DNA of 64,000 nt, from assembly GCF_055900595.2 (NCBI RefSeq), contig NZ_CM148325.1; one strand, written 5' to 3'. The notes below the pieces were generated by a model. That model had not been told where the DNA came from. It saw nothing but the letters and a program-made list of their open reading frames with translations, and did no database searches. Of the stretch, positions 11,611 to 36,839 are shown piece after piece. Each line of letters starts with the position of its first letter. The stretch's first letter is position 1. The position numbers and the translations under genes are program-made.

Positions 11611-12837
11611 ATGGGAATTAACGAAATCATCATGTACATCATGATGTTCTTTATGCTGATAGCTGCCGTGGACAGGATCCTGTCGCAGTTCGGCGGTTCT
11701 GCTCGTTTCCTCGGTAAGTTCGGTAAAAGTATCGAAGGATCCGGCGGCCAGTTCGAAGAAGGCTTTATGGCAATGGGCGCACTGGGCCTGGCGATGGTCG
11801 GTATGACCGCACTGGCACCAGTTCTGGCCCACGTACTTGGGCCGGTGATTATCCCGGTTTACGAAATGCTCGGTGCTAACCCATCGATGTTCGCCGGAAC
11901 ACTGCTGGCGTGCGACATGGGCGGCTTCTTCCTCGCGAAAGAGCTGGCGGGCGGCGATGTGGCAGCGTGGCTATACTCTGGGTTAATTCTCGGATCGATG
12001 ATGGGGCCAACGATTGTGTTTTCCATTCCGGTGGCGCTCGGCATTATCGAACCTTCTGACCGTCGTTATCTGGCGCTCGGCGTGCTGGCGGGCATTGTGA
12101 CCATTCCAATTGGCTGTATCGCTGGAGGTCTGGTAGCTATGTATTCCGGTGTGCAGATCAACGGGCAGCCGGTGGAATTCACCTTTGCGCTTATCCTGAT
12201 GAATATGATCCCGGTACTTATCGTCGCGGTACTGGTGGCGCTGGGGCTGAAATTCATCCCGGAAAAAATGATCAACGGCTTCCAGATCTTCGCCAAGTTC
12301 CTCGTTGCATTGATCACCCTCGGTCTTGCTGCCGCGGTAGTGAAATTCCTCCTTGGCTGGGAACTGATCCCCGGTCTTGATCCGATCTTTATGGCCCCTG
12401 GCGATAAACCCGGTGAAGTGATGCGCGCCATTGAAGTTATCGGTTCTATCTCCTGCGTGCTGTTAGGGGCGTATCCGATGGTGCTGCTGCTGACCCGCTG
12501 GTTTGAAAAACCGCTGATGAGCGTCGGTAAAGTGCTGAATATGAACAACATCGCGGCAGCCGGCATGGTGGCAACGCTTGCCAACAACATCCCGATGTTT
12601 GGCATGATGAAGCAGATGGATACCCGCGGCAAAGTCATCAACTGTGCCTTCGCCGTTTCCGCTGCTTTCGCCCTGGGTGACCACTTAGGCTTCGCCGCTG
12701 CCAACATGAACGCCATGATCTTCCCGATGATTGTCGGCAAGTTGATCGGCGGCGTAACGGCGATTGGCGTGGCGATGATGCTGGTGCCAAAAGAAGACGC
12801 GACCGCGGCTAAAACCGAAGCGGAGGCACAATCGTGA
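11611..12837 (+). CDS. eutH: ethanolamine permease EutH
   Basis: 408-aa polytopic membrane ORF; operon position. Confidence 0.92.
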   Translation: MGINEIIMYIMMFFMLIAAVDRILSQFGGSARFLGKFGKSIEGSGGQFEEGFMAMGALGLAMVGMTALAPVLAHVLGPVIIPVYEMLGANPSMFAGTLLACDMGGFFLAKELAGGDVAAWLYSGLILGSMMGPTIVFSIPVALGIIEPSDRRYLALGVLAGIVTIPIGCIAGGLVAMYSGVQINGQPVEFTFALILMNMIPVLIVAVLVALGLKFIPEKMINGFQIFAKFLVALITLGLAAAVVKFLLGWELIPGLDPIFMAPGDKPGEVMRAIEVIGSISCVLLGAYPMVLLLTRWFEKPLMSVGKVLNMNNIAAAGMVATLANNIPMFGMMKQMDTRGKVINCAFAVSAAFALGDHLGFAAANMNAMIFPMIVGKLIGGVTAIGVAMMLVPKEDATAAKTEAEAQS

Positions 12838-14237
12838 ACACTCGCCAGCTACTGAGCGTCGGTATCGATATCGGCACTACCACCACCCAGGTGATCTTCT
12901 CCCACCTGGAGCTGGTTAACCGTGCGGCGGTGTCGCAGGTGCCGCGCTACGAATTCATCAAACGCGAAATTAGCTGGCAAAGCCCGGTGTTCTTTACCCC
13001 TGTCGATAAACTGGGCGGTTTAAAAGAAGCGGAACTGAAAACCTTAATCCTCGAGCAATATCAGGCTGCGGGCATTGCGCCGGAAAGCGTTGATTCTGGT
13101 GCCATCATCATCACCGGTGAAAGCGCGAAAACCCGCAATGCTCGCCCGGCGGTGATGACGCTCTCCCAGTCGCTTGGCGATTTTGTCGTCGCCAGCGCCG
13201 GGCCGCATCTCGAATCCGTGATCGCCGGTCACGGTGCCGGGGCGCAAACCCTTTCTGAACAACGGCTGTGTCGGGTACTGAATATCGATATTGGCGGTGG
13301 CACCGCGAACTACGCTTTGTTCGATGCCGGAAAAATCAGCGGCACCGCTTGCCTCAACGTCGGCGGTCGCCTGCTGGAAACCGACAGCCAGGGGCGCGTG
13401 GTTTACGCTCATAAACCGGGGCAGATGATAGTGGATGAGTGCTTCGGTGCAGGCACTGACGCCCGTTCGCTGACTGGCGCGCAGCTGGTGCAGGTTACCC
13501 GGCGGATGGCGGAACTGATTGTCGAAGTGATTGACGGAACGCTCTCGCCGCTCGCGCAGGCATTGATGCAAACCGGTTTGCTGCCCGCAGGTGTTACGCC
13601 AGAAATCATTACGCTTTCTGGCGGCGTGGGCGAATGTTATCGCCACCAGCCCGCTGACCCGTTCTGTTTTGCCGATATTGGCCCGCTTCTGGCAACGGCG
13701 CTGCATGACCATCCGCGCCTGCGTGAGATGAACGTGCAGTTTCCGGCGCAAACCGTACGCGCCACGGTGATTGGCGCGGGCGCACATACCCTTTCGCTCT
13801 CTGGCAGCACAATCTGGCTGGAGGGGGTACAACTGCCGCTGCGCAATTTGCCGGTGGCGATCCCAATTGATGAAACGGATCTGGTGAGTGCCTGGCAACA
13901 AGCGCTAATTCAGCTGGATCTTTGCCCCAAAACTGACGCGTACGTGCTGGCGCTTCCCGCCTCGCTGCCTGTGCGTTACGCCGCGGTACTGACGGTCATC
14001 AACGCGCTGGTCGATTTCGTCGCGCGTTTTCCGAATCCGCATCCCCTGCTGGTGGTGGCCGGGCAGGATTTTGGTAAAGCTCTGGGCATGTTGTTGCGCC
14101 CACAGCTACAACAACTCCCGTTGGCAGTCATTGACGAAGTGATTGTCCGCGCGGGGGACTATATCGACATTGGTACGCCTCTTTTTGGCGGATCGGTTGT
14201 GCCGGTGACGGTGAAATCACTCGCATTTCCTTCCTGA
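12834..14237 (+). CDS. eutA: ethanolamine ammonia-lyase reactivase EutA
   Basis: 467-aa ORF; 4-nt overlap with eutH. Confidence 0.92.
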   Translation: MNTRQLLSVGIDIGTTTTQVIFSHLELVNRAAVSQVPRYEFIKREISWQSPVFFTPVDKLGGLKEAELKTLILEQYQAAGIAPESVDSGAIIITGESAKTRNARPAVMTLSQSLGDFVVASAGPHLESVIAGHGAGAQTLSEQRLCRVLNIDIGGGTANYALFDAGKISGTACLNVGGRLLETDSQGRVVYAHKPGQMIVDECFGAGTDARSLTGAQLVQVTRRMAELIVEVIDGTLSPLAQALMQTGLLPAGVTPEIITLSGGVGECYRHQPADPFCFADIGPLLATALHDHPRLREMNVQFPAQTVRATVIGAGAHTLSLSGSTIWLEGVQLPLRNLPVAIPIDETDLVSAWQQALIQLDLCPKTDAYVLALPASLPVRYAAVLTVINALVDFVARFPNPHPLLVVAGQDFGKALGMLLRPQLQQLPLAVIDEVIVRAGDYIDIGTPLFGGSVVPVTVKSLAFPS

Positions 14238-14248
14238 GGGAACGACTT

Positions 14249-15610
14249 ATGAAACTAAAGACCACATTGTTCGGCAATGTATATCAGTTTAAGGATGTAA
14301 AAGAGGTGCTGGCTAAAGCCAACGAACTGCGTTCGGGGGATGTGCTGGCGGGCGTTGCAGCGGCAAGTTCACAGGAGCGCGTGGCGGCAAAGCAGGTGTT
14401 GTCGGAAATGACCGTAGCGGACATCCGCAATAATCCGGTGATTGCCTATGAAGATGACTGCGTGACGCGGCTGATTCAGGACGACGTTAACGAAACGGCC
14501 TACAACCAGATTAAAAACTGGAGCATCAGCGAACTGCGTGAGTATGTGCTGAGTGATGAAACCAGCGTGGACGACATTGCCTTTACCCGCAAAGGGCTGA
14601 CCTCGGAAGTGGTCGCGGCGGTAGCGAAGATTTGCTCCAACGCGGACCTGATCTACGGCGCGAAGAAAATGCCGATTATCAAAAAGGCCAATACTACCAT
14701 CGGTATTCCGGGCACCTTTAGCGCCCGTTTGCAGCCGAACGATACCCGTGACGACGTGCAGAGTATCGCCGCGCAAATCTACGAAGGGCTTTCCTTCGGG
14801 GTAGGCGATGCGGTGATCGGCGTTAACCCGGTGACTGACGACGTGGAAAACTTAAGCCGCGTGCTGGATACCATCTATGGCGTGATCGACAAATTCAACA
14901 TTCCGACCCAGGGCTGCGTGCTGGCGCACGTTACTACCCAGATTGAAGCGATCCGTCGCGGCGCGCCGGGCGGGCTGATTTTCCAGAGCATCTGCGGCAG
15001 CGAAAAAGGGCTGAAAGAATTTGGCGTGGAGCTGGCGATGCTCGATGAAGCACGCGCAGTGGGCGCAGAGTTTAACCGTATCGCCGGGGAAAACTGCCTC
15101 TACTTCGAAACCGGGCAAGGTTCTGCGCTATCGGCGGGCGCTAACTTCGGCGCAGATCAGGTAACGATGGAAGCGCGTAACTACGGGCTGGCACGTCATT
15201 ACGATCCGTTTATCGTCAACACCGTAGTGGGCTTTATTGGGCCAGAGTATCTCTACAACGACCGGCAGATTATCCGTGCGGGCTTAGAAGATCACTTTAT
15301 GGGCAAACTGAGCGGCATTTCTATGGGCTGTGACTGCTGCTACACCAACCACGCTGACGCTGACCAGAACCTCAACGAAAACCTGATGATCCTGCTCGCC
15401 ACCGCAGGCTGCAACTACATCATGGGGATGCCGCTGGGTGATGACATCATGCTCAACTACCAGACCACCGCATTCCACGATACCGCCACTGTGCGTCAGT
15501 TACTCAACCTGCGCCCGTCACCGGAGTTTGAACGCTGGCTGGAAAGCATGGGCATTATGGCAAACGGTCGCCTGACCAAACGGGCGGGCGATCCGTCACT
15601 GTTCTTCTGA
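14249..15610 (+). CDS. eutB: ethanolamine ammonia-lyase heavy chain EutB
   Basis: 453-aa ORF starting 11 nt after eutA stop. Confidence 0.93.
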   Translation: MKLKTTLFGNVYQFKDVKEVLAKANELRSGDVLAGVAAASSQERVAAKQVLSEMTVADIRNNPVIAYEDDCVTRLIQDDVNETAYNQIKNWSISELREYVLSDETSVDDIAFTRKGLTSEVVAAVAKICSNADLIYGAKKMPIIKKANTTIGIPGTFSARLQPNDTRDDVQSIAAQIYEGLSFGVGDAVIGVNPVTDDVENLSRVLDTIYGVIDKFNIPTQGCVLAHVTTQIEAIRRGAPGGLIFQSICGSEKGLKEFGVELAMLDEARAVGAEFNRIAGENCLYFETGQGSALSAGANFGADQVTMEARNYGLARHYDPFIVNTVVGFIGPEYLYNDRQIIRAGLEDHFMGKLSGISMGCDCCYTNHADADQNLNENLMILLATAGCNYIMGMPLGDDIMLNYQTTAFHDTATVRQLLNLRPSPEFERWLESMGIMANGRLTKRAGDPSLFF

Positions 15611-15630
15611 TGACGCGGAGATAACACATC

Positions 15631-16518
15631 ATGGATCAAAAACAGATTGAAGAAATTGTACGCAGCGTGATGGCGTCAATGGGACAAGCGGCCCCCGCGC
15701 CGTCAGAAGCAAAATGCGCCACTACCACCTGTGCAGCACCGATGACCTCGGAAAGCTGCGCGCTGGATTTAGGTTCCGCAGAAGCAAAAGCGTGGATTGG
15801 CGTTGAAAACCCACATCGCGCAGACGTATTAACTGAACTGCGCCGCAGCACCGTGGCTCGCGTCTGTACCGGTCGTGCCGGTCCGCGTCCGCGTACCCAG
15901 GCGTTGCTGCGTTTCCTGGCCGATCACTCTCGTTCGAAAGACACCGTACTGAAAGAAGTGCCGGAAGAGTGGGTGAAAGCGCAGGGCTTGCTGGAGGTCC
16001 GCTCTGAAATTAGCGACAAAAATCTCTATCTGACTCGCCCGGATATGGGCCGCCGCTTGTGTGCAGAGGCTGTTGAAGCGCTGAAAGCGCAGTGTGTTGC
16101 CAATCCGGACGTACAGGTCGTTATTTCTGATGGCCTGTCAACTGATGCGATCACCGTGAACTACGAAGAGATCCTGCCACCGCTGATGGCGGGCCTGAAA
16201 CAGGCCGGGTTGAAAGTCGGCACACCGTTCTTTGTGCGTTACGGTCGCGTGAAGATTGAAGATCAGATTGGCGAACTTCTTGGCGCGAAAGTGGTGATCC
16301 TGCTGGTGGGGGAACGCCCAGGATTAGGGCAGTCAGAAAGCCTCTCCTGCTACGCCGTTTACTCGCCGCGTATGGCAACCACCGTTGAGGCCGATCGCAC
16401 CTGTATCTCTAACATTCACCAGGGCGGCACGCCGCCGGTTGAAGCCGCAGCCGTCATTGTGGATTTGGCGAAACGTATGCTGGAGCAGAAAGCATCCGGC
16501 ATCAACATGACCCGATAA
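15631..16518 (+). CDS. eutC: ethanolamine ammonia-lyase light chain EutC
   Basis: 295-aa ORF; operon position. Confidence 0.93.
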
Positions 16519-16527
16519 GGAGGCATC

Positions 16528-17187
16528 ATGCCAGCTTTAGATTTGATTCGACCGTCGGTAACCGCCATGCGGGTGATTGCCTCTGTCAACGCCGAATTTG
16601 CGCGTGAACTGAAATTGCCGCCGCATATTCGTAGCCTCGGGCTGATTTCTGCTGATTCCGATGACGTCACCTACATTGCGGCTGACGAAGCGACCAAGCA
16701 GGCGATGGTTGAAGTCGTGTATGGTCGCTCGCTGTATGCGGGAGCTGCACACGGGCCGTCACCGACTGCCGGTGAGGTGCTGATTATGCTTGGTGGGCCA
16801 AACCCGGCGGAAGTGCGTGCTGGTCTGGATGCGATGGTTGCGCATATTGAAAATGGCGCTGCTTTCCAGTGGGCTAATGATGCAGAAAACACAGCCTTCC
16901 TGGCGCATGTCGTTTCGCGTACCGGCTCTTATCTCTCATCAACCGCCGGGATCACGCTTGGCGATCCGCTGGCGTATCTGGTGGCACCGCCGCTGGAAGC
17001 GACCTACGGCATTGATGCAGCGTTGAAATCTGCCGACGTGCAGCTGGTGACCTATGTCCCGCCACCGTCTGAAACCAACTACTCGGCAGCATTTTTAACC
17101 GGTAGCCAGGCCGCGTGTAAAGCAGCCTGTAACGCCTTTACCGATGCAGTGCTGGAAATCGCGCGTAATCCAATCCAGCGTGCGTAA
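16528..17187 (+). CDS. eutL: microcompartment shell protein EutL (tandem BMC)
   Basis: 219-aa ORF; operon position. Confidence 0.92.
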
Positions 17188-17193
17188 CGGAGG

Positions 17194-17700
17194 TTGCCGA
17201 TGATCAATGCACTGGGATTGCTGGAAGTGGACGGCATGGTCGCCGCGATAGATGCAGCTGATGCCATGCTCAAAGCAGCTAACGTTCGTCTGCTCAGTCA
17301 CGAAGTGCTTGACCCTGGTCGCCTAACGCTGGTGGTGGAAGGCGATCTGGCGGCGTGTCGTGCGGCGCTGGACGCAGGTTGTGCTGCCGCGATGCGTACC
17401 GGGCGTGTCATCAGCCGTAAGGAGATCGGTCGGCCAGACGATGACACCCAGTGGCTGGTTACTGGCTTTAACCGCCAGCCGAAGCAACCCGTAAAGGAAC
17501 CCGACGCGCCAGTTATCGTCGCGGAATCTGCTGACGAGTTGTTGGCGCTGTTAACATCAGTACGTCAGGGAATGACGGCAGGAGAAGTGGCTGCCCACTT
17601 TGGCTGGCCGCTGGAAAAAGCCAGAAATGCGCTCGAACAGCTCTTTTCTGCCGGGACGTTACGTAAACGCAGTAGTCGTTATCGTCTCAAGCCCCATTAA
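17194..17700 (+). CDS. eutK: microcompartment shell protein EutK
   Basis: 168-aa ORF with BMC domain plus C-terminal basic tail; true start may be the ATG 6 nt downstream. Confidence 0.9.
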   Translation: MPMINALGLLEVDGMVAAIDAADAMLKAANVRLLSHEVLDPGRLTLVVEGDLAACRAALDAGCAAAMRTGRVISRKEIGRPDDDTQWLVTGFNRQPKQPVKEPDAPVIVAESADELLALLTSVRQGMTAGEVAAHFGWPLEKARNALEQLFSAGTLRKRSSRYRLKPH

Positions 17701-17745
17701 CCTGTCGGAGGTGCCGGGTGTCCTACAACACCCGGCATTAACATC

Positions 17746-18798
17746 ATGAAAAAGACCCGTACAGCTAATTTGCACCATCTTTATCATGAACCCTTACCCG
17801 AAAACCTGAAGCTAACGCCGAAGGTCGAAGTGGATAATGTTCATCAACGGCAAACAACGGATGTCTATGAACATGCTTTGACGATTACCGCCTGGCAGCA
17901 GATTTACGATCAGCTGCATCCGGGCAAATTTCATGGTGAATTTACGGAAATTCTGCTCGATGATATTCAGGTTTTCCGTGAATACACGGGGCTGGCGCTG
18001 CGTCAGTCGTGCCTGGTCTGGCCGAATTCGTTCTGGTTTGGCATTCCGGCGACGCGCGGTGAGCAGGGATTTATCGGTTCGCAATGTCTGGGAAGCGCAG
18101 AAATAGCGACGCGCCCTGGTGGAACCGAGTTTGAATTAAGTACGCCGGACGATTACACGATCCTTGGCGTGGTGCTTTCTGAAGATGTCATCACCCGGCA
18201 GGCTAACTTTTTGCATAACCCGGAAAGGGTGCTGCATATGTTACGTAACCAGTCGGCGCTGGAAGTGAAAGAGCAGCATAAAGCCGCGCTGTGGGGCTTT
18301 GTCCAACAGGCTCTGGCGACATTTTGCGAGAACCCGGAAAATCTCCATCAGCCTGCAGTGCGAAAAGTGCTGGGGGATAATTTGCTAATGGCGATGGGGG
18401 CGATGCTGGAAGAAGCGCAGCCAATGGTGACGGTGGAAAGCATCAGTCATCAGAGTTACCGTCGGTTGCTTTCCCGCGCCCGTGAATATGTGCTGGAAAA
18501 CATGTCCGAACCGGTGACGGTGCTGGACTTGTGTAATCAACTGCACGTCAGTCGCCGCACCTTGCAAAACGCATTTCACGCTATTTTGGGCATTGGCCCG
18601 AATGCGTGGCTGAAACGCATTCGCCTGAACGCCGTGCGCCGTGAACTGATTAGCCCGTGGTCGCAAAGTATGACGGTAAAAGACGCCGCCATGCAGTGGG
18701 GATTCTGGCATCTTGGGCAGTTTGCCACGGATTATCAGCAATTGTTTGCAGAAAAGCCTTCACTGACGCTGCATCAGCGGATGCAGGAACTGGAGTGA
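17746..18798 (+). CDS. eutR: AraC-family transcriptional activator of eut operon
   Basis: 350-aa ORF with C-terminal AraC-type HTH; last gene of operon. Confidence 0.92.
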
Positions 18799-18874
18799 GG
18801 GTGAGGGCCGGATGAGGATGGTGTTTGATCCGGTCCATAGTGAAGTTACAAATTACGTTGAATTGCTATGTATT

Positions 18875-19192
18875 TTATTGCCCAACGGGATAGGCGATAA
18901 ACAAACCGACAATTGTCAAAATACACGCCAGCAGGAATACCAACATACAATTTACGCGCTTTCGCGAAATTTTAAATAAATAGCAAAATAGTGTTGTTAC
19001 CACGATCACTACCGGGATAGTCATAAAATTAATAACGATGAGTGCTATCAATCCAAAACTTGCTCCTCCACCGTGGGGAATAAAAATGTGTTCTTCAAAA
19101 TAAACTTCTATAGCAAATGCCAGCACACATCCCAGAAAACTCATATCCAGATGAGGGTGCCATTTACTTTCTTTATGTGATGTGTCTGACAT
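18875..19192 (-). CDS. hypothetical small membrane protein (about three predicted TM segments), not recognised
   Basis: 105-aa ORF; hydrophobic stretches LGCVLAFAIEVYF, FGLIALIVINFMTIPVVIVVTTLFCYLF, MLVFLLACILTIVGLFIAYPV; SD-like gggag about 9 nt upstream of ATG; 40 bp downstream of the 420-aa ORF on same strand; AT-rich. Confidence 0.6.
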   Translation of the reverse strand: MSDTSHKESKWHPHLDMSFLGCVLAFAIEVYFEEHIFIPHGGGASFGLIALIVINFMTIPVVIVVTTLFCYLFKISRKRVNCMLVFLLACILTIVGLFIAYPVGQ

Positions 19193-19232
19193 TCTTAAAT
19201 GCTCCCGTGAGCAAACTGGCGCAAAATAATTT

Positions 19233-20495
19233 CTAAGATTGCTGATAAGACGTCGCTGTTGTCCGGCACTCCGGGCAGATAAACGCGTAAATTATCCCTT
19301 CGCCGTATTGTTCAATATCGGCATAATCCAGTTGCGCAAGAAACATCATTGTGTGGGAACATTGCGGACAGAGAGGATATTCCGCGTCCTGAATCCAGGT
19401 TGGATGCCCGCCAAGTTGCGAGAAAGAGACAGGTAAAAATGGGTCTGCGGCAAATAACGGTGACCTAAGGTTTCCCTGTCTCATGCTGTTTACAGGGAGT
19501 CGACGCCATTCCGATACATCATCCGGCAGCCAGGCAGGCGGGATATTTTTTGCAGACAAATGAGCGTTACCCTTTGAGTCCATGTAGCCGAAAATGGTGC
19601 TGTAGGCGGTGCAACATTCGCAAGTCACGACGCGAAAACTGCCGTTATCGCTAAGACCCGTTGCCTTCAGGTCAACGTCGAAAAGATTTGTTAGTGGCAA
19701 TGCGCAATTTGGACAGGTATCGTTGCGTTCATCAACAACACGCAAAGCTTCGCAAGACCCGGTGCTTTTCATCTCCAGATGAAAACATTGAGGAAAATAG
19801 AGATTACGCCTTTGATCTTCAGCGGTTAACTCCCAACCGGCCTCATGCGCATATTCTTCAGGCTCGATGTAAAGGGAGCTGCGCCACGGCGGTGGGCTAT
19901 TGCGCCAGTGGGCAAAACGTTCAACGACAACGTCATCCCCAATCCATGCCAGACATTGCAGAATACAATTTCTGTTTTCTGCATCATCCTCAACCCGTTC
20001 TAACAGCCTGTCGCGTACATCTGTGGGGGCGCGGTGGAAAGGCATATAAGAATCATTGTCCAAATCATCGTAAGAGATCCATTCTCTGAAATAGGCATTC
20101 AGATTCGCCTGGGTAAATGCCGCCAGACAAAGGCAAATCTCCTGAGCGAGCTTATATTCACCAGATGCAAAGCGTTCTGTGGCGTAATCAGCCATCAGCT
20201 GCGCTTGATCGGTGGTCAGTTGTTGATACAGGGCATCTGTGGGAACGGGGCAGGGAGTCCAGTCGATTAACGCATCGAATTTCCGCGGTTGGTGAATTAA
20301 TTTCAGCATGACAACCGGATCGCTTAACCCTGCAAACGCATTCACGATCTTTTTGTTTTTCTTGATATATTCGTCGTGCTCACGTTGCTGTTGGGCCTGC
20401 TCGCAGGGCATGCAGTATCCGTTAGTACGCGCTGCGGTTTCCGGAAGAATGGTTGATATACAAGCGGGGCTTTTACAGGGAATACGGTGAGTCAT
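19233..20495 (-). CDS. hypothetical cysteine-rich protein, unrecognised; C-terminal region resembles DUF1963/YwqG-type domain
   Basis: 420-aa ORF with aggag SD 7 nt upstream of ATG; three CxxC-containing pairs (CKSPAC/CMPC, CPNC/CECC, CPQC/CPEC); no signal peptide or TM segment; not in K-12 gene order between eutR and hemF. Confidence 0.8.
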   Translation of the reverse strand: MTHRIPCKSPACISTILPETAARTNGYCMPCEQAQQQREHDEYIKKNKKIVNAFAGLSDPVVMLKLIHQPRKFDALIDWTPCPVPTDALYQQLTTDQAQLMADYATERFASGEYKLAQEICLCLAAFTQANLNAYFREWISYDDLDNDSYMPFHRAPTDVRDRLLERVEDDAENRNCILQCLAWIGDDVVVERFAHWRNSPPPWRSSLYIEPEEYAHEAGWELTAEDQRRNLYFPQCFHLEMKSTGSCEALRVVDERNDTCPNCALPLTNLFDVDLKATGLSDNGSFRVVTCECCTAYSTIFGYMDSKGNAHLSAKNIPPAWLPDDVSEWRRLPVNSMRQGNLRSPLFAADPFLPVSFSQLGGHPTWIQDAEYPLCPQCSHTMMFLAQLDYADIEQYGEGIIYAFICPECRTTATSYQQS

Positions 20496-20633
20496 AGAGG
20501 CGCTCCTTGCCTGAGGATATTAAGTCGAAAGAGATTATTATTAGATATTAGGGTGTCACTATGGCACACAAATTAAAACAGCATTAATTTTATGCCACCA
20601 ACCGAGGGTTATTTTTCTTTTATTTTCATGATA

Positions 20634-21536
<903 letters not shown>

Positions 21537-22406
21537 TTACCGCTTTCTCGAGTGTGCTTTCTGGTTGTCAAACCAGTGGAAATAACTGATCACGCCTTCG
21601 GCAATGGCTGTGGCGATTTTCTGGCGAAATGCCGCCGTGCCTAACAGCCGCTCTTCTTCCGGGTTGGTGATAAAAGAAGTTTCCACCAGCACCGAAGGAA
21701 CAGATGGCGATTTCAACACTACAAACGCGGCTTGTTCGGTATTGCGGCTGTGCAGCTTATGCACCGGCTTAATCTTCTTCAGAATATGTGAGCCGAGCGT
21801 CAGGCTGTTTTTAATAGTATCGGTTTGTACCAGATCAAACAGCACTTGTTGCAATAGGTGATCCTTGTCAGTCGCTTTTTTACCGGCAACTTCATCAGCG
21901 CGGTTTTCGCGTTCAGACAGGTATTTCGCCATTGCGCTACTTGCCCCACGGTTAGAGAGAGCAAATACCGAAGCACCGGCAGCTTTCGGGTTGGTAAAGC
22001 CATCGGCATGAATTGACATAAACAGATCTGCGCCATGTTTATGGGCGATTTCAACGCGATCGTAAAGTGGGATAAACGTATCGCCAGAACGCGTTAAACG
22101 CGCATCAATGCCATGATTACGCAAAATGGAACGGACGTTTTTGGCAATTGCCAGCACCACATGTTTTTCTTTCGAACCGTTGCGACCAATCGCCCCGGTA
22201 TCAATCCCGCCGTGGCCTGGATCGAGAACAACGACACGTTTGCCGCCGTTTTTTTTTGCTTTCGGCTTGCTGTGTCCGTTGCTGGTTTTTAAAGGTTCTT
22301 CTTTGGCGATGGCTTGCGACATTCCTGACAACGTCAGGGCAGCCAATCCGGCTTTCAGCACCTGGCGGCGCGAAGTGAGTGTTTTTAGTGGTTTAAAAGT
22401 GCTCAT
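21537..22406 (-). CDS. amiA: N-acetylmuramoyl-L-alanine amidase A (Tat-exported)
   Basis: 289-aa ORF with twin-arginine signal SRRQVLKAG and amidase_3 domain; 3 bp upstream of hemF. Confidence 0.93.
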   Translation of the reverse strand: MSTFKPLKTLTSRRQVLKAGLAALTLSGMSQAIAKEEPLKTSNGHSKPKAKKNGGKRVVVLDPGHGGIDTGAIGRNGSKEKHVVLAIAKNVRSILRNHGIDARLTRSGDTFIPLYDRVEIAHKHGADLFMSIHADGFTNPKAAGASVFALSNRGASSAMAKYLSERENRADEVAGKKATDKDHLLQQVLFDLVQTDTIKNSLTLGSHILKKIKPVHKLHSRNTEQAAFVVLKSPSVPSVLVETSFITNPEEERLLGTAAFRQKIATAIAEGVISYFHWFDNQKAHSRKR

Positions 22407-36104: not shown

Positions 36105-36839
36105 TTAATTTTCGTGTGGAAACGTAGTAAGGTCATCAATCATTTTTTGAAGTATTGGTGAGTCCTGACCATCACCCCATTGAAGAATTTTTGCGGTAAG
36201 CTGATGACGGGCTAGTGCATTGAGTCCCATCTTTTTAAGTTTATGGGAGATTTTACCCATGACTTTAATCTGACCGAATGCAGTTGCGTAGGTAATCATA
36301 TTGCTCTGGATAGTGCTCATTTCATCGGCTAGTAATTGCGCACGAATATCCTCTTCAAGAATACTTTCCATAGCGATATATTTCATACCCCAGATAGTTT
36401 CAATTAACATTTGAGGGAAATCAGCACAATCTAGATCCGGCTCTTTACGCAGGCTATTTTCAAGAACGTTTAGAGCATCAGCACCTTCATCGCTGCCAAA
36501 AGGAGATTCTTCATCCCAGCAACACACATAAAGTGGATCAGTAAAATGGCACTGGAAGTTTGGGTGTGACGTTTTAACATGTAACCCAATTTCTTCATCA
36601 TCAAAATAGTAGCGATCCATGTAGTTAAAGTTTGGATCTTCTTGATAGCCTTTCTTCATTTTTGCGGCAATCAATTTACTGGCTTCTTTCAGACACTGTT
36701 CTTCATTATCGAACTCTTTTGTCTGGAATTTACCAATACTACCTACCTTGCCATAGTTGATGGCTAAACTATCCCCTTCGTAATCTATCCACCAAAATTT
36801 ATTCGATTTTTCATCGTTATAAATAAAGCATTTTTTCAT
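36105..36839 (-). CDS. yfeS: WGR-domain protein YfeS
   Basis: 244-aa ORF MKKCFIYNDEKSNKFWWIDYEGDSL...; K-12 synteny. Confidence 0.88.
   Translation of the reverse strand: MKKCFIYNDEKSNKFWWIDYEGDSLAINYGKVGSIGKFQTKEFDNEEQCLKEASKLIAAKMKKGYQEDPNFNYMDRYYFDDEEIGLHVKTSHPNFQCHFTDPLYVCCWDEESPFGSDEGADALNVLENSLRKEPDLDCADFPQMLIETIWGMKYIAMESILEEDIRAQLLADEMSTIQSNMITYATAFGQIKVMGKISHKLKKMGLNALARHQLTAKILQWGDGQDSPILQKMIDDLTTFPHEN

Follow-up and report, generated by a model that had tools for sequence, protein, structure and literature searches.

What is the product of the small, AT-rich gene that separates eutR from a larger ORF in this chromosome, and does it act together with the protein that the larger ORF encodes? 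The DNA analyzed here, a stretch of 64,000 nucleotides referred to below as the window, is a segment of an Escherichia coli chromosome, and the region in question is 100% identical in several complete E. coli genomes. A preliminary description of the window noted an AT-rich gene for a 105-aa membrane protein just downstream of a 420-aa ORF, and the ORF list, the RefSeq CDS, the computed G+C content, and the hydropathy profile all agree with it. We call the small gene ypfK, for the YpfK family to which its product belongs, and the larger one the TYPP gene, for the superfamily of its product described below.

The gene, its family, and its base composition

RefSeq carries the identical CDS as “hypothetical protein” WP_032184838.1. 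We are nearly certain that ypfK (Table 1) is a genuine protein-coding gene with the identity and anatomy set out here. Specifically, the ORF is conserved to 44–55% identity in other genera, and pairwise dN/dS values among its homologs range from 0.09 to 0.35, with dS saturated between genera. Thus, the ORF is beyond chance. The contrary notion, that it is no gene at all but an open frame produced by chance in AT-rich intergenic sequence, could appeal to the low confidence of the AlphaFold model (pLDDT 59.6) and to the absence of a promoter consensus close by. However, the ORF is kept intact down to 44% identity across four genera with dN/dS well below 1, it follows a good Shine–Dalgarno sequence, and it possesses a RefSeq annotation and a Pfam family. 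The dN/dS values and the cross-genus conservation effectively refute the chance frame, whose probability is close to nil.

Table 1. Features of the window around ypfK (positions in the window)
Feature	Position	Strand	Remarks
eutA-eutB-eutC-eutL-eutK-eutR	12834-18798	+	Window gene order
Accessory islet (TYPP gene and ypfK)	18802..20633		1,832 bp; BLASTN breakpoints vs K-12
Weak hairpin between convergent eutR and ypfK	18806..18836		-10.7 kcal/mol, z = -1.55, no U tract
ypfK-family CDS	18875..19192	-	105 aa, ATG start; ORF list and RefSeq CDS
Shine–Dalgarno-like GGGAG	19202..19206	-	9 nt 5' of the ypfK ATG; read from sequence
420-aa TYPP/DUF1963 protein gene	19233..20495	-	Stop codon 40 nt upstream of the ypfK start
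AT-rich intergenic region	20496..20633	-	34.8% G+C; between hemF stop and TYPP gene start
hemF	20634-21533	-	Followed in the table's direction by amiA, same strand
ypeA, yfeZ, yfeY	Beyond amiA	+

The AT-rich intergenic region is a possible promoter region; alternatively, the two genes may be read through from amiA–hemF. A consensus scan of positions 18700–20750 revealed neither a sigma-70-like site nor a terminator, the hairpin downstream of ypfK is not convincing as an intrinsic terminator, and an Rfam scan found no families across the islet.

The two genes form an islet of accessory DNA. Homology to E. coli K-12 breaks at 18801/18802 and at 20633/20634, between the convergent eutR and hemF stops. 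K-12 lacks the islet, and its eutR and hemF stop codons lie, likewise convergent, 5 bp apart. This empty junction is present in 5,394 of 5,426 complete E. coli genomes (99.4%). The 420-aa gene occurs in 28 of the 5,426; 25 of these also carry ypfK, and the remaining three carry an unrelated gene for a soluble 221-aa protein in its place. In some Enterobacteriaceae, the cassette, TYPP gene first and ypfK second, lies close downstream of hemF; roughly 99.4% of E. coli lack it.

From its sequence, the window protein is a direct member of the YpfK family (PF26378), with nothing to set it apart from the other members. The assignment is an indirect one, via the precomputed tags of homologs; the Pfam-A copy scanned here presumably does not contain PF26378. 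Specifically, 18 of 19 homologs bear a precomputed PF26378.1 match, including one 98%-identical protein, and the exact window protein, which occurs on 758 contigs, shares a 90% cluster with a representative (P0004) that bears PF26378.1. Full-length homologs from Escherichia, Salmonella, Kluyvera, and Klebsiella are all tagged PF26378, named YpfK. Homologs at 98–44% identity come from E. coli, E. fergusonii, E. albertii, Salmonella enterica serovars, Kluyvera georgiana, and Klebsiella spp., the most distant (44%) being a metagenomic enteric protein. Conservation in other genomes, which the preliminary description had raised as a check on the gene, is therefore found in Escherichia, Salmonella, Klebsiella, and Kluyvera.

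The family is small. When 1.84 billion representative proteins were searched exhaustively with a profile, eight representatives of the YpfK family emerged, all enterobacterial. Species-representative genomes scanned with the YpfK alignment gave no confirmed relative, consistent with reference genomes that do not carry the gene. Comparison of the 105-aa protein with NCBIfam, PADLOC, PHROGs, and Pfam returned sub-threshold noise only; in the Pfam-A scan, this noise consisted of two unrelated entries, CPP1-like and DUF819, at E >= 0.3. Sequence and profile searches of the PDB with both proteins of the islet returned nothing useful. All sources name YpfK members “hypothetical protein,” and a full-text literature search found no relevant paper on YpfK, PF26378, or the protein accessions. 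Thus far, then, little changes: the ORF is already correctly annotated as hypothetical, and its family is already catalogued. What is new lies in the context. Only a few Enterobacteriaceae possess YpfK; in each context examined, its gene is next to a TYPP gene, apparently of family two, or to a remnant of that gene, even after a change of gene order; and the pair marks a variable hemF–eutR site that in other strains is filled by immunity-type genes.

The base composition of ypfK is unusual. Its computed G+C content is 38.4% (GC3, 35.8%), compared with 49.5% for the 420-aa gene, 52.4% for eutR, 54.3% for hemF, and 51.9% for the whole window, and only 1.7% of 318-bp windows are equally AT-rich. 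The earlier estimate by eye, 35–40% against about 50% in the flanking genes, was accurate. To obtain the G+C content expected for this protein, synonymous codons were resampled from the window’s own codon usage with the YpfK protein held fixed. The expectation is 46.5% and the observed value, start codon excluded, is 38.8% (z = -4.7); ypfK thus deviates from its neighbors in G+C content and from the window in codon usage. From this expectation, approximately 40% of the G+C deficit derives from the hydrophobic amino-acid composition of the product and the remainder from AT-biased codons. The codons of the 420-aa gene are likewise biased toward AT (z = -4.0), and hemF gives z = +0.3.

The preliminary description had taken the AT-richness to suggest a different evolutionary history. 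That history is visible in the 1,832-bp islet absent from K-12; the AT-richness itself, by contrast, is no evidence of recent import, because the deficit relative to hemF is present in all hosts examined and stems partly from amino-acid composition. In each host (E. coli, Salmonella, Kluyvera, and Klebsiella), ypfK lies 10–19 G+C points under hemF, and its GC3 partly follows the GC3 of the host. The window holds a second AT-rich ORF, at 36105-36839 on the minus strand (244 aa; G+C 38.3%, GC3 34.8%), whose G+C content is the lowest among the window’s 51 long ORFs. Its match to the NCBIfam fibronectin-binding family LIC_11051 covers only the first 67 residues and scores 69.9 bits against a cut-off of 1000, so the ORF falls outside that family; it is possibly a further accessory gene.

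The restricted range of YpfK raises the idea that this small membrane protein is lineage-restricted, that its role is unrelated, minor, or dispensable (it might, say, modulate another membrane protein), and that its adjacency to the TYPP gene is historical. Such a protein may have been born de novo out of T-rich sequence next to the TYPP gene and may be undergoing slow loss. The eight enterobacterial representatives fit this notion, as does the coding strand of ypfK, which is 35.5% T and specifies a product rich in L, I, V, and F. Also in keeping with it, truncated or frameshifted alleles are frequent and accompanied by an in-frame 12-aa deletion allele, 99.4% of E. coli do without the gene, and the divergences of the two islet proteins are uncorrelated. 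Nonetheless, we consider this role somewhat unlikely: purifying selection (dN/dS 0.09-0.35) extends over four genera with dS saturated, 22 positions, including intramembrane E29 and N55, are invariant, and the adjacency has been kept after a change of gene order in Salmonella.

A predicted three-helix membrane protein

Hydropathy analysis of YpfK shows a hydrophilic segment at residues 1–16 and hydrophobic segments at approximately 17–38, 44–73, and 82–103, in agreement with the hydrophilic first 16 residues and the three or so hydrophobic helices noted earlier. The low-confidence AlphaFold2 model places helices at 14–35, 44–72, and 77–100. Residues 74–79 form a basic loop, KISRKR, which under the positive-inside rule would put the N-terminus and loop 2 on the cytoplasmic side and expose loop 1 and the C-terminus to the periplasm. 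YpfK is thus predicted to be a three-helix inner-membrane protein with a cytoplasmic N-terminus and a periplasmic C-terminus.

Among the 22 invariant positions are E29 (helix 1), N55 and P60 (both helix 2), and those of the IFIPxGGG loop motif; E29 and N55 are an intramembrane Glu and Asn. The best-conserved elements are the IFIPxGGG loop and the C-terminal YPVG, both of which, we infer, would face the periplasm. The least conserved parts are the N-tail and loop 2, which are predicted to be cytoplasmic. Among the alleles, P0017 from Salmonella (L009:6001-6294; 97 aa) carries an in-frame 12-residue deletion inside helix 2. This allele, which several contigs carry (serovar Havana is one example), may be non-functional. 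Other alleles with frameshifts or truncations (P0008, P0009, P0015, P0141, and P0144) come from E. coli and Salmonella.

Immunity proteins against E1-, Ia-, and K-type colicins are approximately 95–115 aa long, have three transmembrane helices in an N-in/C-out arrangement, and are encoded by small, AT-rich, strain-variable genes. YpfK is like them in size, in its three predicted helices and predicted N-in/C-out topology, and in having an AT-rich, strain-variable gene. By this analogy, YpfK could be a stand-alone inner-membrane protein of the “orphan immunity” kind, acting against an envelope toxin coming from the periplasmic side, for instance a pore-forming colicin or the membrane effector of a T6SS or CDI system, and its adjacency to the TYPP gene would reflect no more than a shared variable locus. 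The conserved surfaces are predicted to be periplasmic, where such a toxin would arrive, and ypfK is rare (0.5% of E. coli) and fast-evolving as well as AT-rich. Furthermore, the eutR–hemF site elsewhere holds genes for Tli3-family T6SS immunity, SEL1/TPR-repeat, or ankyrin-repeat proteins.

We nevertheless judge stand-alone immunity improbable. YpfK has no detectable sequence or profile similarity to the colicin immunity proteins in the Pfam-A scan, nor does it resemble any immunity family of Pfam, NCBIfam, or PADLOC. Unlike the colicin immunity genes, ypfK is chromosomal and syntenic across genera, no colicin, lysis, or other toxin gene lies nearby, and it is never plasmid-borne: a tblastn search of 72,556 plasmids with YpfK found no copy. 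Its selection regime is purifying, with invariant motifs, rather than diversifying. Finally, in the contexts examined, YpfK is never found away from a TYPP gene or its remnant.

We considered and rejected two further possibilities. The first is carriage on a mobile element. In addition to the negative plasmid search, YpfK has no match in 50,697 phage genomes (tblastn) or in IMG/VR viral contigs (scan), and tblastn with the 420-aa protein likewise found nothing in plasmids or phages; on the basis of these searches, we reject such carriage. The second is a phage holin. No PHROG matches YpfK below E = 0.2, there is no copy in the phage genomes or viral contigs and no lysis gene nearby, and the protein ends 5 residues past helix 3, unlike a holin with its charged cytoplasmic C-terminal tail.

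The TYPP neighbor and a possible membrane partnership

The larger gene of the islet specifies a cytoplasmic protein, named “DUF1963 domain-containing protein” in RefSeq, that appears to combine a C4 zinc finger at its N-terminus with HEAT-like helical repeats and a YwqG-like beta domain. The TYPP superfamily (TSR4/YwqG/PDCD2L/PDCD2; Pfam DUF1963) is treated by Burroughs & Aravind (2014, PMC4275035), who propose that its members function in protein–protein interaction or in a chaperone-like role and that the TYPP channel binds extended peptides. The 420-aa protein exhibits the DUF1963 profile, the YwqG-like fold, the GGxP motif, and the conserved Gln of the superfamily. Its layout, C4 zinc finger followed by an alpha-helical region and a TYPP domain, appears to be that of TYPP “family two,” in which an N-terminal alpha-helical domain is often preceded by a C4 zinc finger of the DksA/TraR type (PMC4275035). 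The idea that YwqG/DUF1963 is a polymorphic-toxin immunity family was dropped; the family is absent from the 2012 survey of such systems (PMC3482391).

The two genes of the islet differ greatly in range. Relatives of the 420-aa protein, at approximately 35–55% full-length identity, occur in Paenibacillus, Lysinibacillus, Clostridium, Planctomycetota, Verrucomicrobiota, Chitinimonas, and Shewanella. A YpfK homolog lies beside none of the TYPP genes in 80 species-representative loci from several phyla, and these 80 loci hold no consistent small membrane neighbor of any kind, only sporadic non-homologous cases. Closer to home, the TYPP gene stands without YpfK in Citrobacter, Superficieibacter, an uncultured enterobacterium, and three E. 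coli genomes.

From the YpfK side, the association is strict. In all eight distinct YpfK contexts examined, a TYPP gene or its remnant is directly adjacent on the same strand, and in all of them ypfK is neighbored by hemF, the TYPP gene, and either eutR or maeB. The order hemF–TYPP–YpfK is found in E. coli (two haplotypes), Kluyvera, Klebsiella, and the metagenomic enteric bacterium with the 44%-identical protein; one of the two E. coli haplotypes is that of EPEC E2348/69, in which the pair lies beside an SNF2-related gene. In many Salmonella, the order is reversed to hemF–YpfK–TYPP, and because the genes are adjacent in spite of the reversal, the adjacency has outlived a rearrangement of gene order. 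Other Salmonella have hemF–YpfK followed by a decayed C-terminal TYPP remnant, and locus L011 has hemF, an N-terminal TYPP remnant, YpfK, and then a gene for a 223-aa protein. The intergenic gaps between TYPP and YpfK are 15–128 nt across contexts. Thus, the co-occurrence with the 420-aa gene that the preliminary description had proposed as a check holds in one direction and fails in the other: YpfK is beside TYPP or its remnant in every context examined, whereas TYPP is often without YpfK.

Decay of the TYPP gene is documented by several pseudogenes. In L011 (5808-6020), an N-terminal 55-aa remnant is fused just upstream of ypfK, and in Salmonella (L010:4954-5190 and L009:6337-6576), a C-terminal remnant (aa ~290-412) lies between ypfK and eutR. 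The TYPP gene decayed independently in these two cases, and ypfK is intact in both. In a sample of 48 Salmonella contigs, 29 carry both genes and 19 carry a decayed TYPP gene. The YpfK sequence is identical in the two states, which indicates that the loss of TYPP in Salmonella is recent.

The account that we rank first, possible but tentative, is that YpfK is a co-transcribed membrane partner to which the TYPP protein is functionally coupled. The TYPP gene and ypfK would be transcribed as one unit, given their shared strand, the 40-nt gap, and a scan that detected neither a promoter nor a terminator between them. YpfK would sit in the inner membrane as the partner of the cytoplasmic, protein-binding, and perhaps chaperone-like TYPP/HEAT protein, and could link something at the periplasmic face of that membrane to it. 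The membrane partnership that the preliminary description had offered as an alternative is modestly favored by the strict adjacency in the YpfK loci examined, which persists with short gaps through the change of order. Both genes share AT-biased codons (z = -4.7 and -4.0), and both evolve fast relative to hemF: cross-genus identity is 44–63% for YpfK, 55–76% for the TYPP protein, and 85–94% for HemF. In addition, the literature proposes a peptide-binding TYPP channel and reports some YwqG-family TYPP proteins that are fused to transmembrane helices (PMC4275035). The islet resembles those fusions in that a TYPP protein is paired with a membrane protein; it differs in that the membrane helices are specified by a separate gene and in that the reported fusions belong to the YwqG family, not to family two.

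Several observations weigh against a partnership. The range of the TYPP family greatly exceeds that of YpfK, as the 80 loci without YpfK illustrate, and YpfK is intact beside a decayed TYPP gene in the 19 Salmonella contigs and in L011, although in Salmonella the loss is recent. The conserved parts of YpfK are predicted to be periplasmic, away from a cytoplasmic partner, and its cytoplasmic parts are the variable ones. In a mirror-tree style comparison, the pairwise divergences of YpfK and TYPP are uncorrelated, with the low power of a small sample (r = 0.19, n = 10). Adjacency, moreover, could merely reflect the birthplace of the gene. If the two proteins do cooperate, the islet would offer a first testable handle on the function of bacterial TYPP (YwqG/DUF1963) proteins, whose eukaryotic relatives are dedicated chaperones.

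Comparison with defense modules, and the variable eutR–hemF site

A larger soluble protein followed in one operon by a small membrane protein is also the layout of defense modules that combine a soluble sensor with a small membrane effector, and the cassette, like them, is rare and strain-variable. The hypothesis, voiced in the preliminary description as an undemonstrated toxin–immunity or defense role, is that TYPP and YpfK form a toxin–antitoxin, abortive-infection, or other defense pair in which YpfK would depolarize the cell on a signal from TYPP. The islet’s AT-richness and fast evolution would suit such a pair, as would the SNF2-related helicase gene that adjoins it in E2348/69 and L011. 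Yet the sequence comparisons do not support a toxin–immunity, toxin–antitoxin, or defense pair, and we consider one very unlikely. Specifically, the 105-aa, 420-aa, and alternative 221-aa proteins hit no family at E <= 1 among the 5,027 models of PADLOC-DB 2.0, and neither islet protein shows similarity to a toxin, antitoxin, or immunity protein in NCBIfam, PADLOC, PHROGs, or Pfam. In many phyla, the large protein is common and stands alone, and no phage or plasmid copies exist in the collections searched.

Nor do the two genes depend on each other. TYPP is without ypfK in 80 of 80 loci, and ypfK outlasts a decayed TYPP gene. Because many Salmonella keep an intact YpfK while its partner gene has decayed, it is no unneutralized toxin at its native expression level. 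The pair is therefore not obligate, in contrast to the modules that it resembles, and it has no association with mobile elements or defense islands; its constant position downstream of hemF in different genera points to vertical descent and not to the mobility of a defense island. One variant of the conflict idea adds an origin: YpfK would have been born de novo from T-rich DNA beside TYPP in an enterobacterial ancestor and recruited to act at the membrane as the partner of the zinc-finger/HEAT/TYPP protein, a sensor or chaperone on this view, giving a new two-gene conflict module (defense or immunity) that persists as a rare polymorphism at the hemF–eutR site. To this variant, too, we assign only a slight probability.

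Other strains carry alternative occupants at the eutR–hemF site, which identifies it as a variable locus and a hotspot for accessory cassettes. In E. coli 2017-02-2CC and WL297, for example, the 221-aa gene resides there (L003:147-2440 and L004:146-2440), and beside it, on the opposite strand, lie TPR and SEL1-repeat genes together with a gene annotated “T6SS immunity protein Tli3 family.” The 221-aa protein has no family match and is 62% identical to the product of the 223-aa gene that follows ypfK in L011. The SNF2-related helicase gene (~1,147 aa; DUF3670, DUF8276) adjoins the cassette at L002:4302-6658 in EPEC E2348/69 and at L011:7121-10564. In Citrobacter sp. S2-9 (L015:2784-3833), which has no ypfK, a 349-aa ankyrin-repeat gene lies between hemF and the TYPP gene.

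The core DNA on either side of the islet is divergent as well. The flanks at 17529-18801 (3' part of eutR) and 20634-21755 (hemF/amiA) are 95.1% and 93.2% identical to K-12, respectively, and in a set of 5,424 genomes identity to the K-12 junction segment is 90–95% in 876 and 95–99% in 3,232. Such diversity is unusually high for E. coli core genes, which suggests recombination around the variable site. Finally, we note that eutA is followed directly by eutB in the window (12834-15610), whereas in K-12 (L012:7319-10001) the cryptic prophage CPZ-55 (intZ) adjoins eutB. Thus, with no CPZ-55 at this position, the eut operon of the window is uninterrupted at eutA–eutB.
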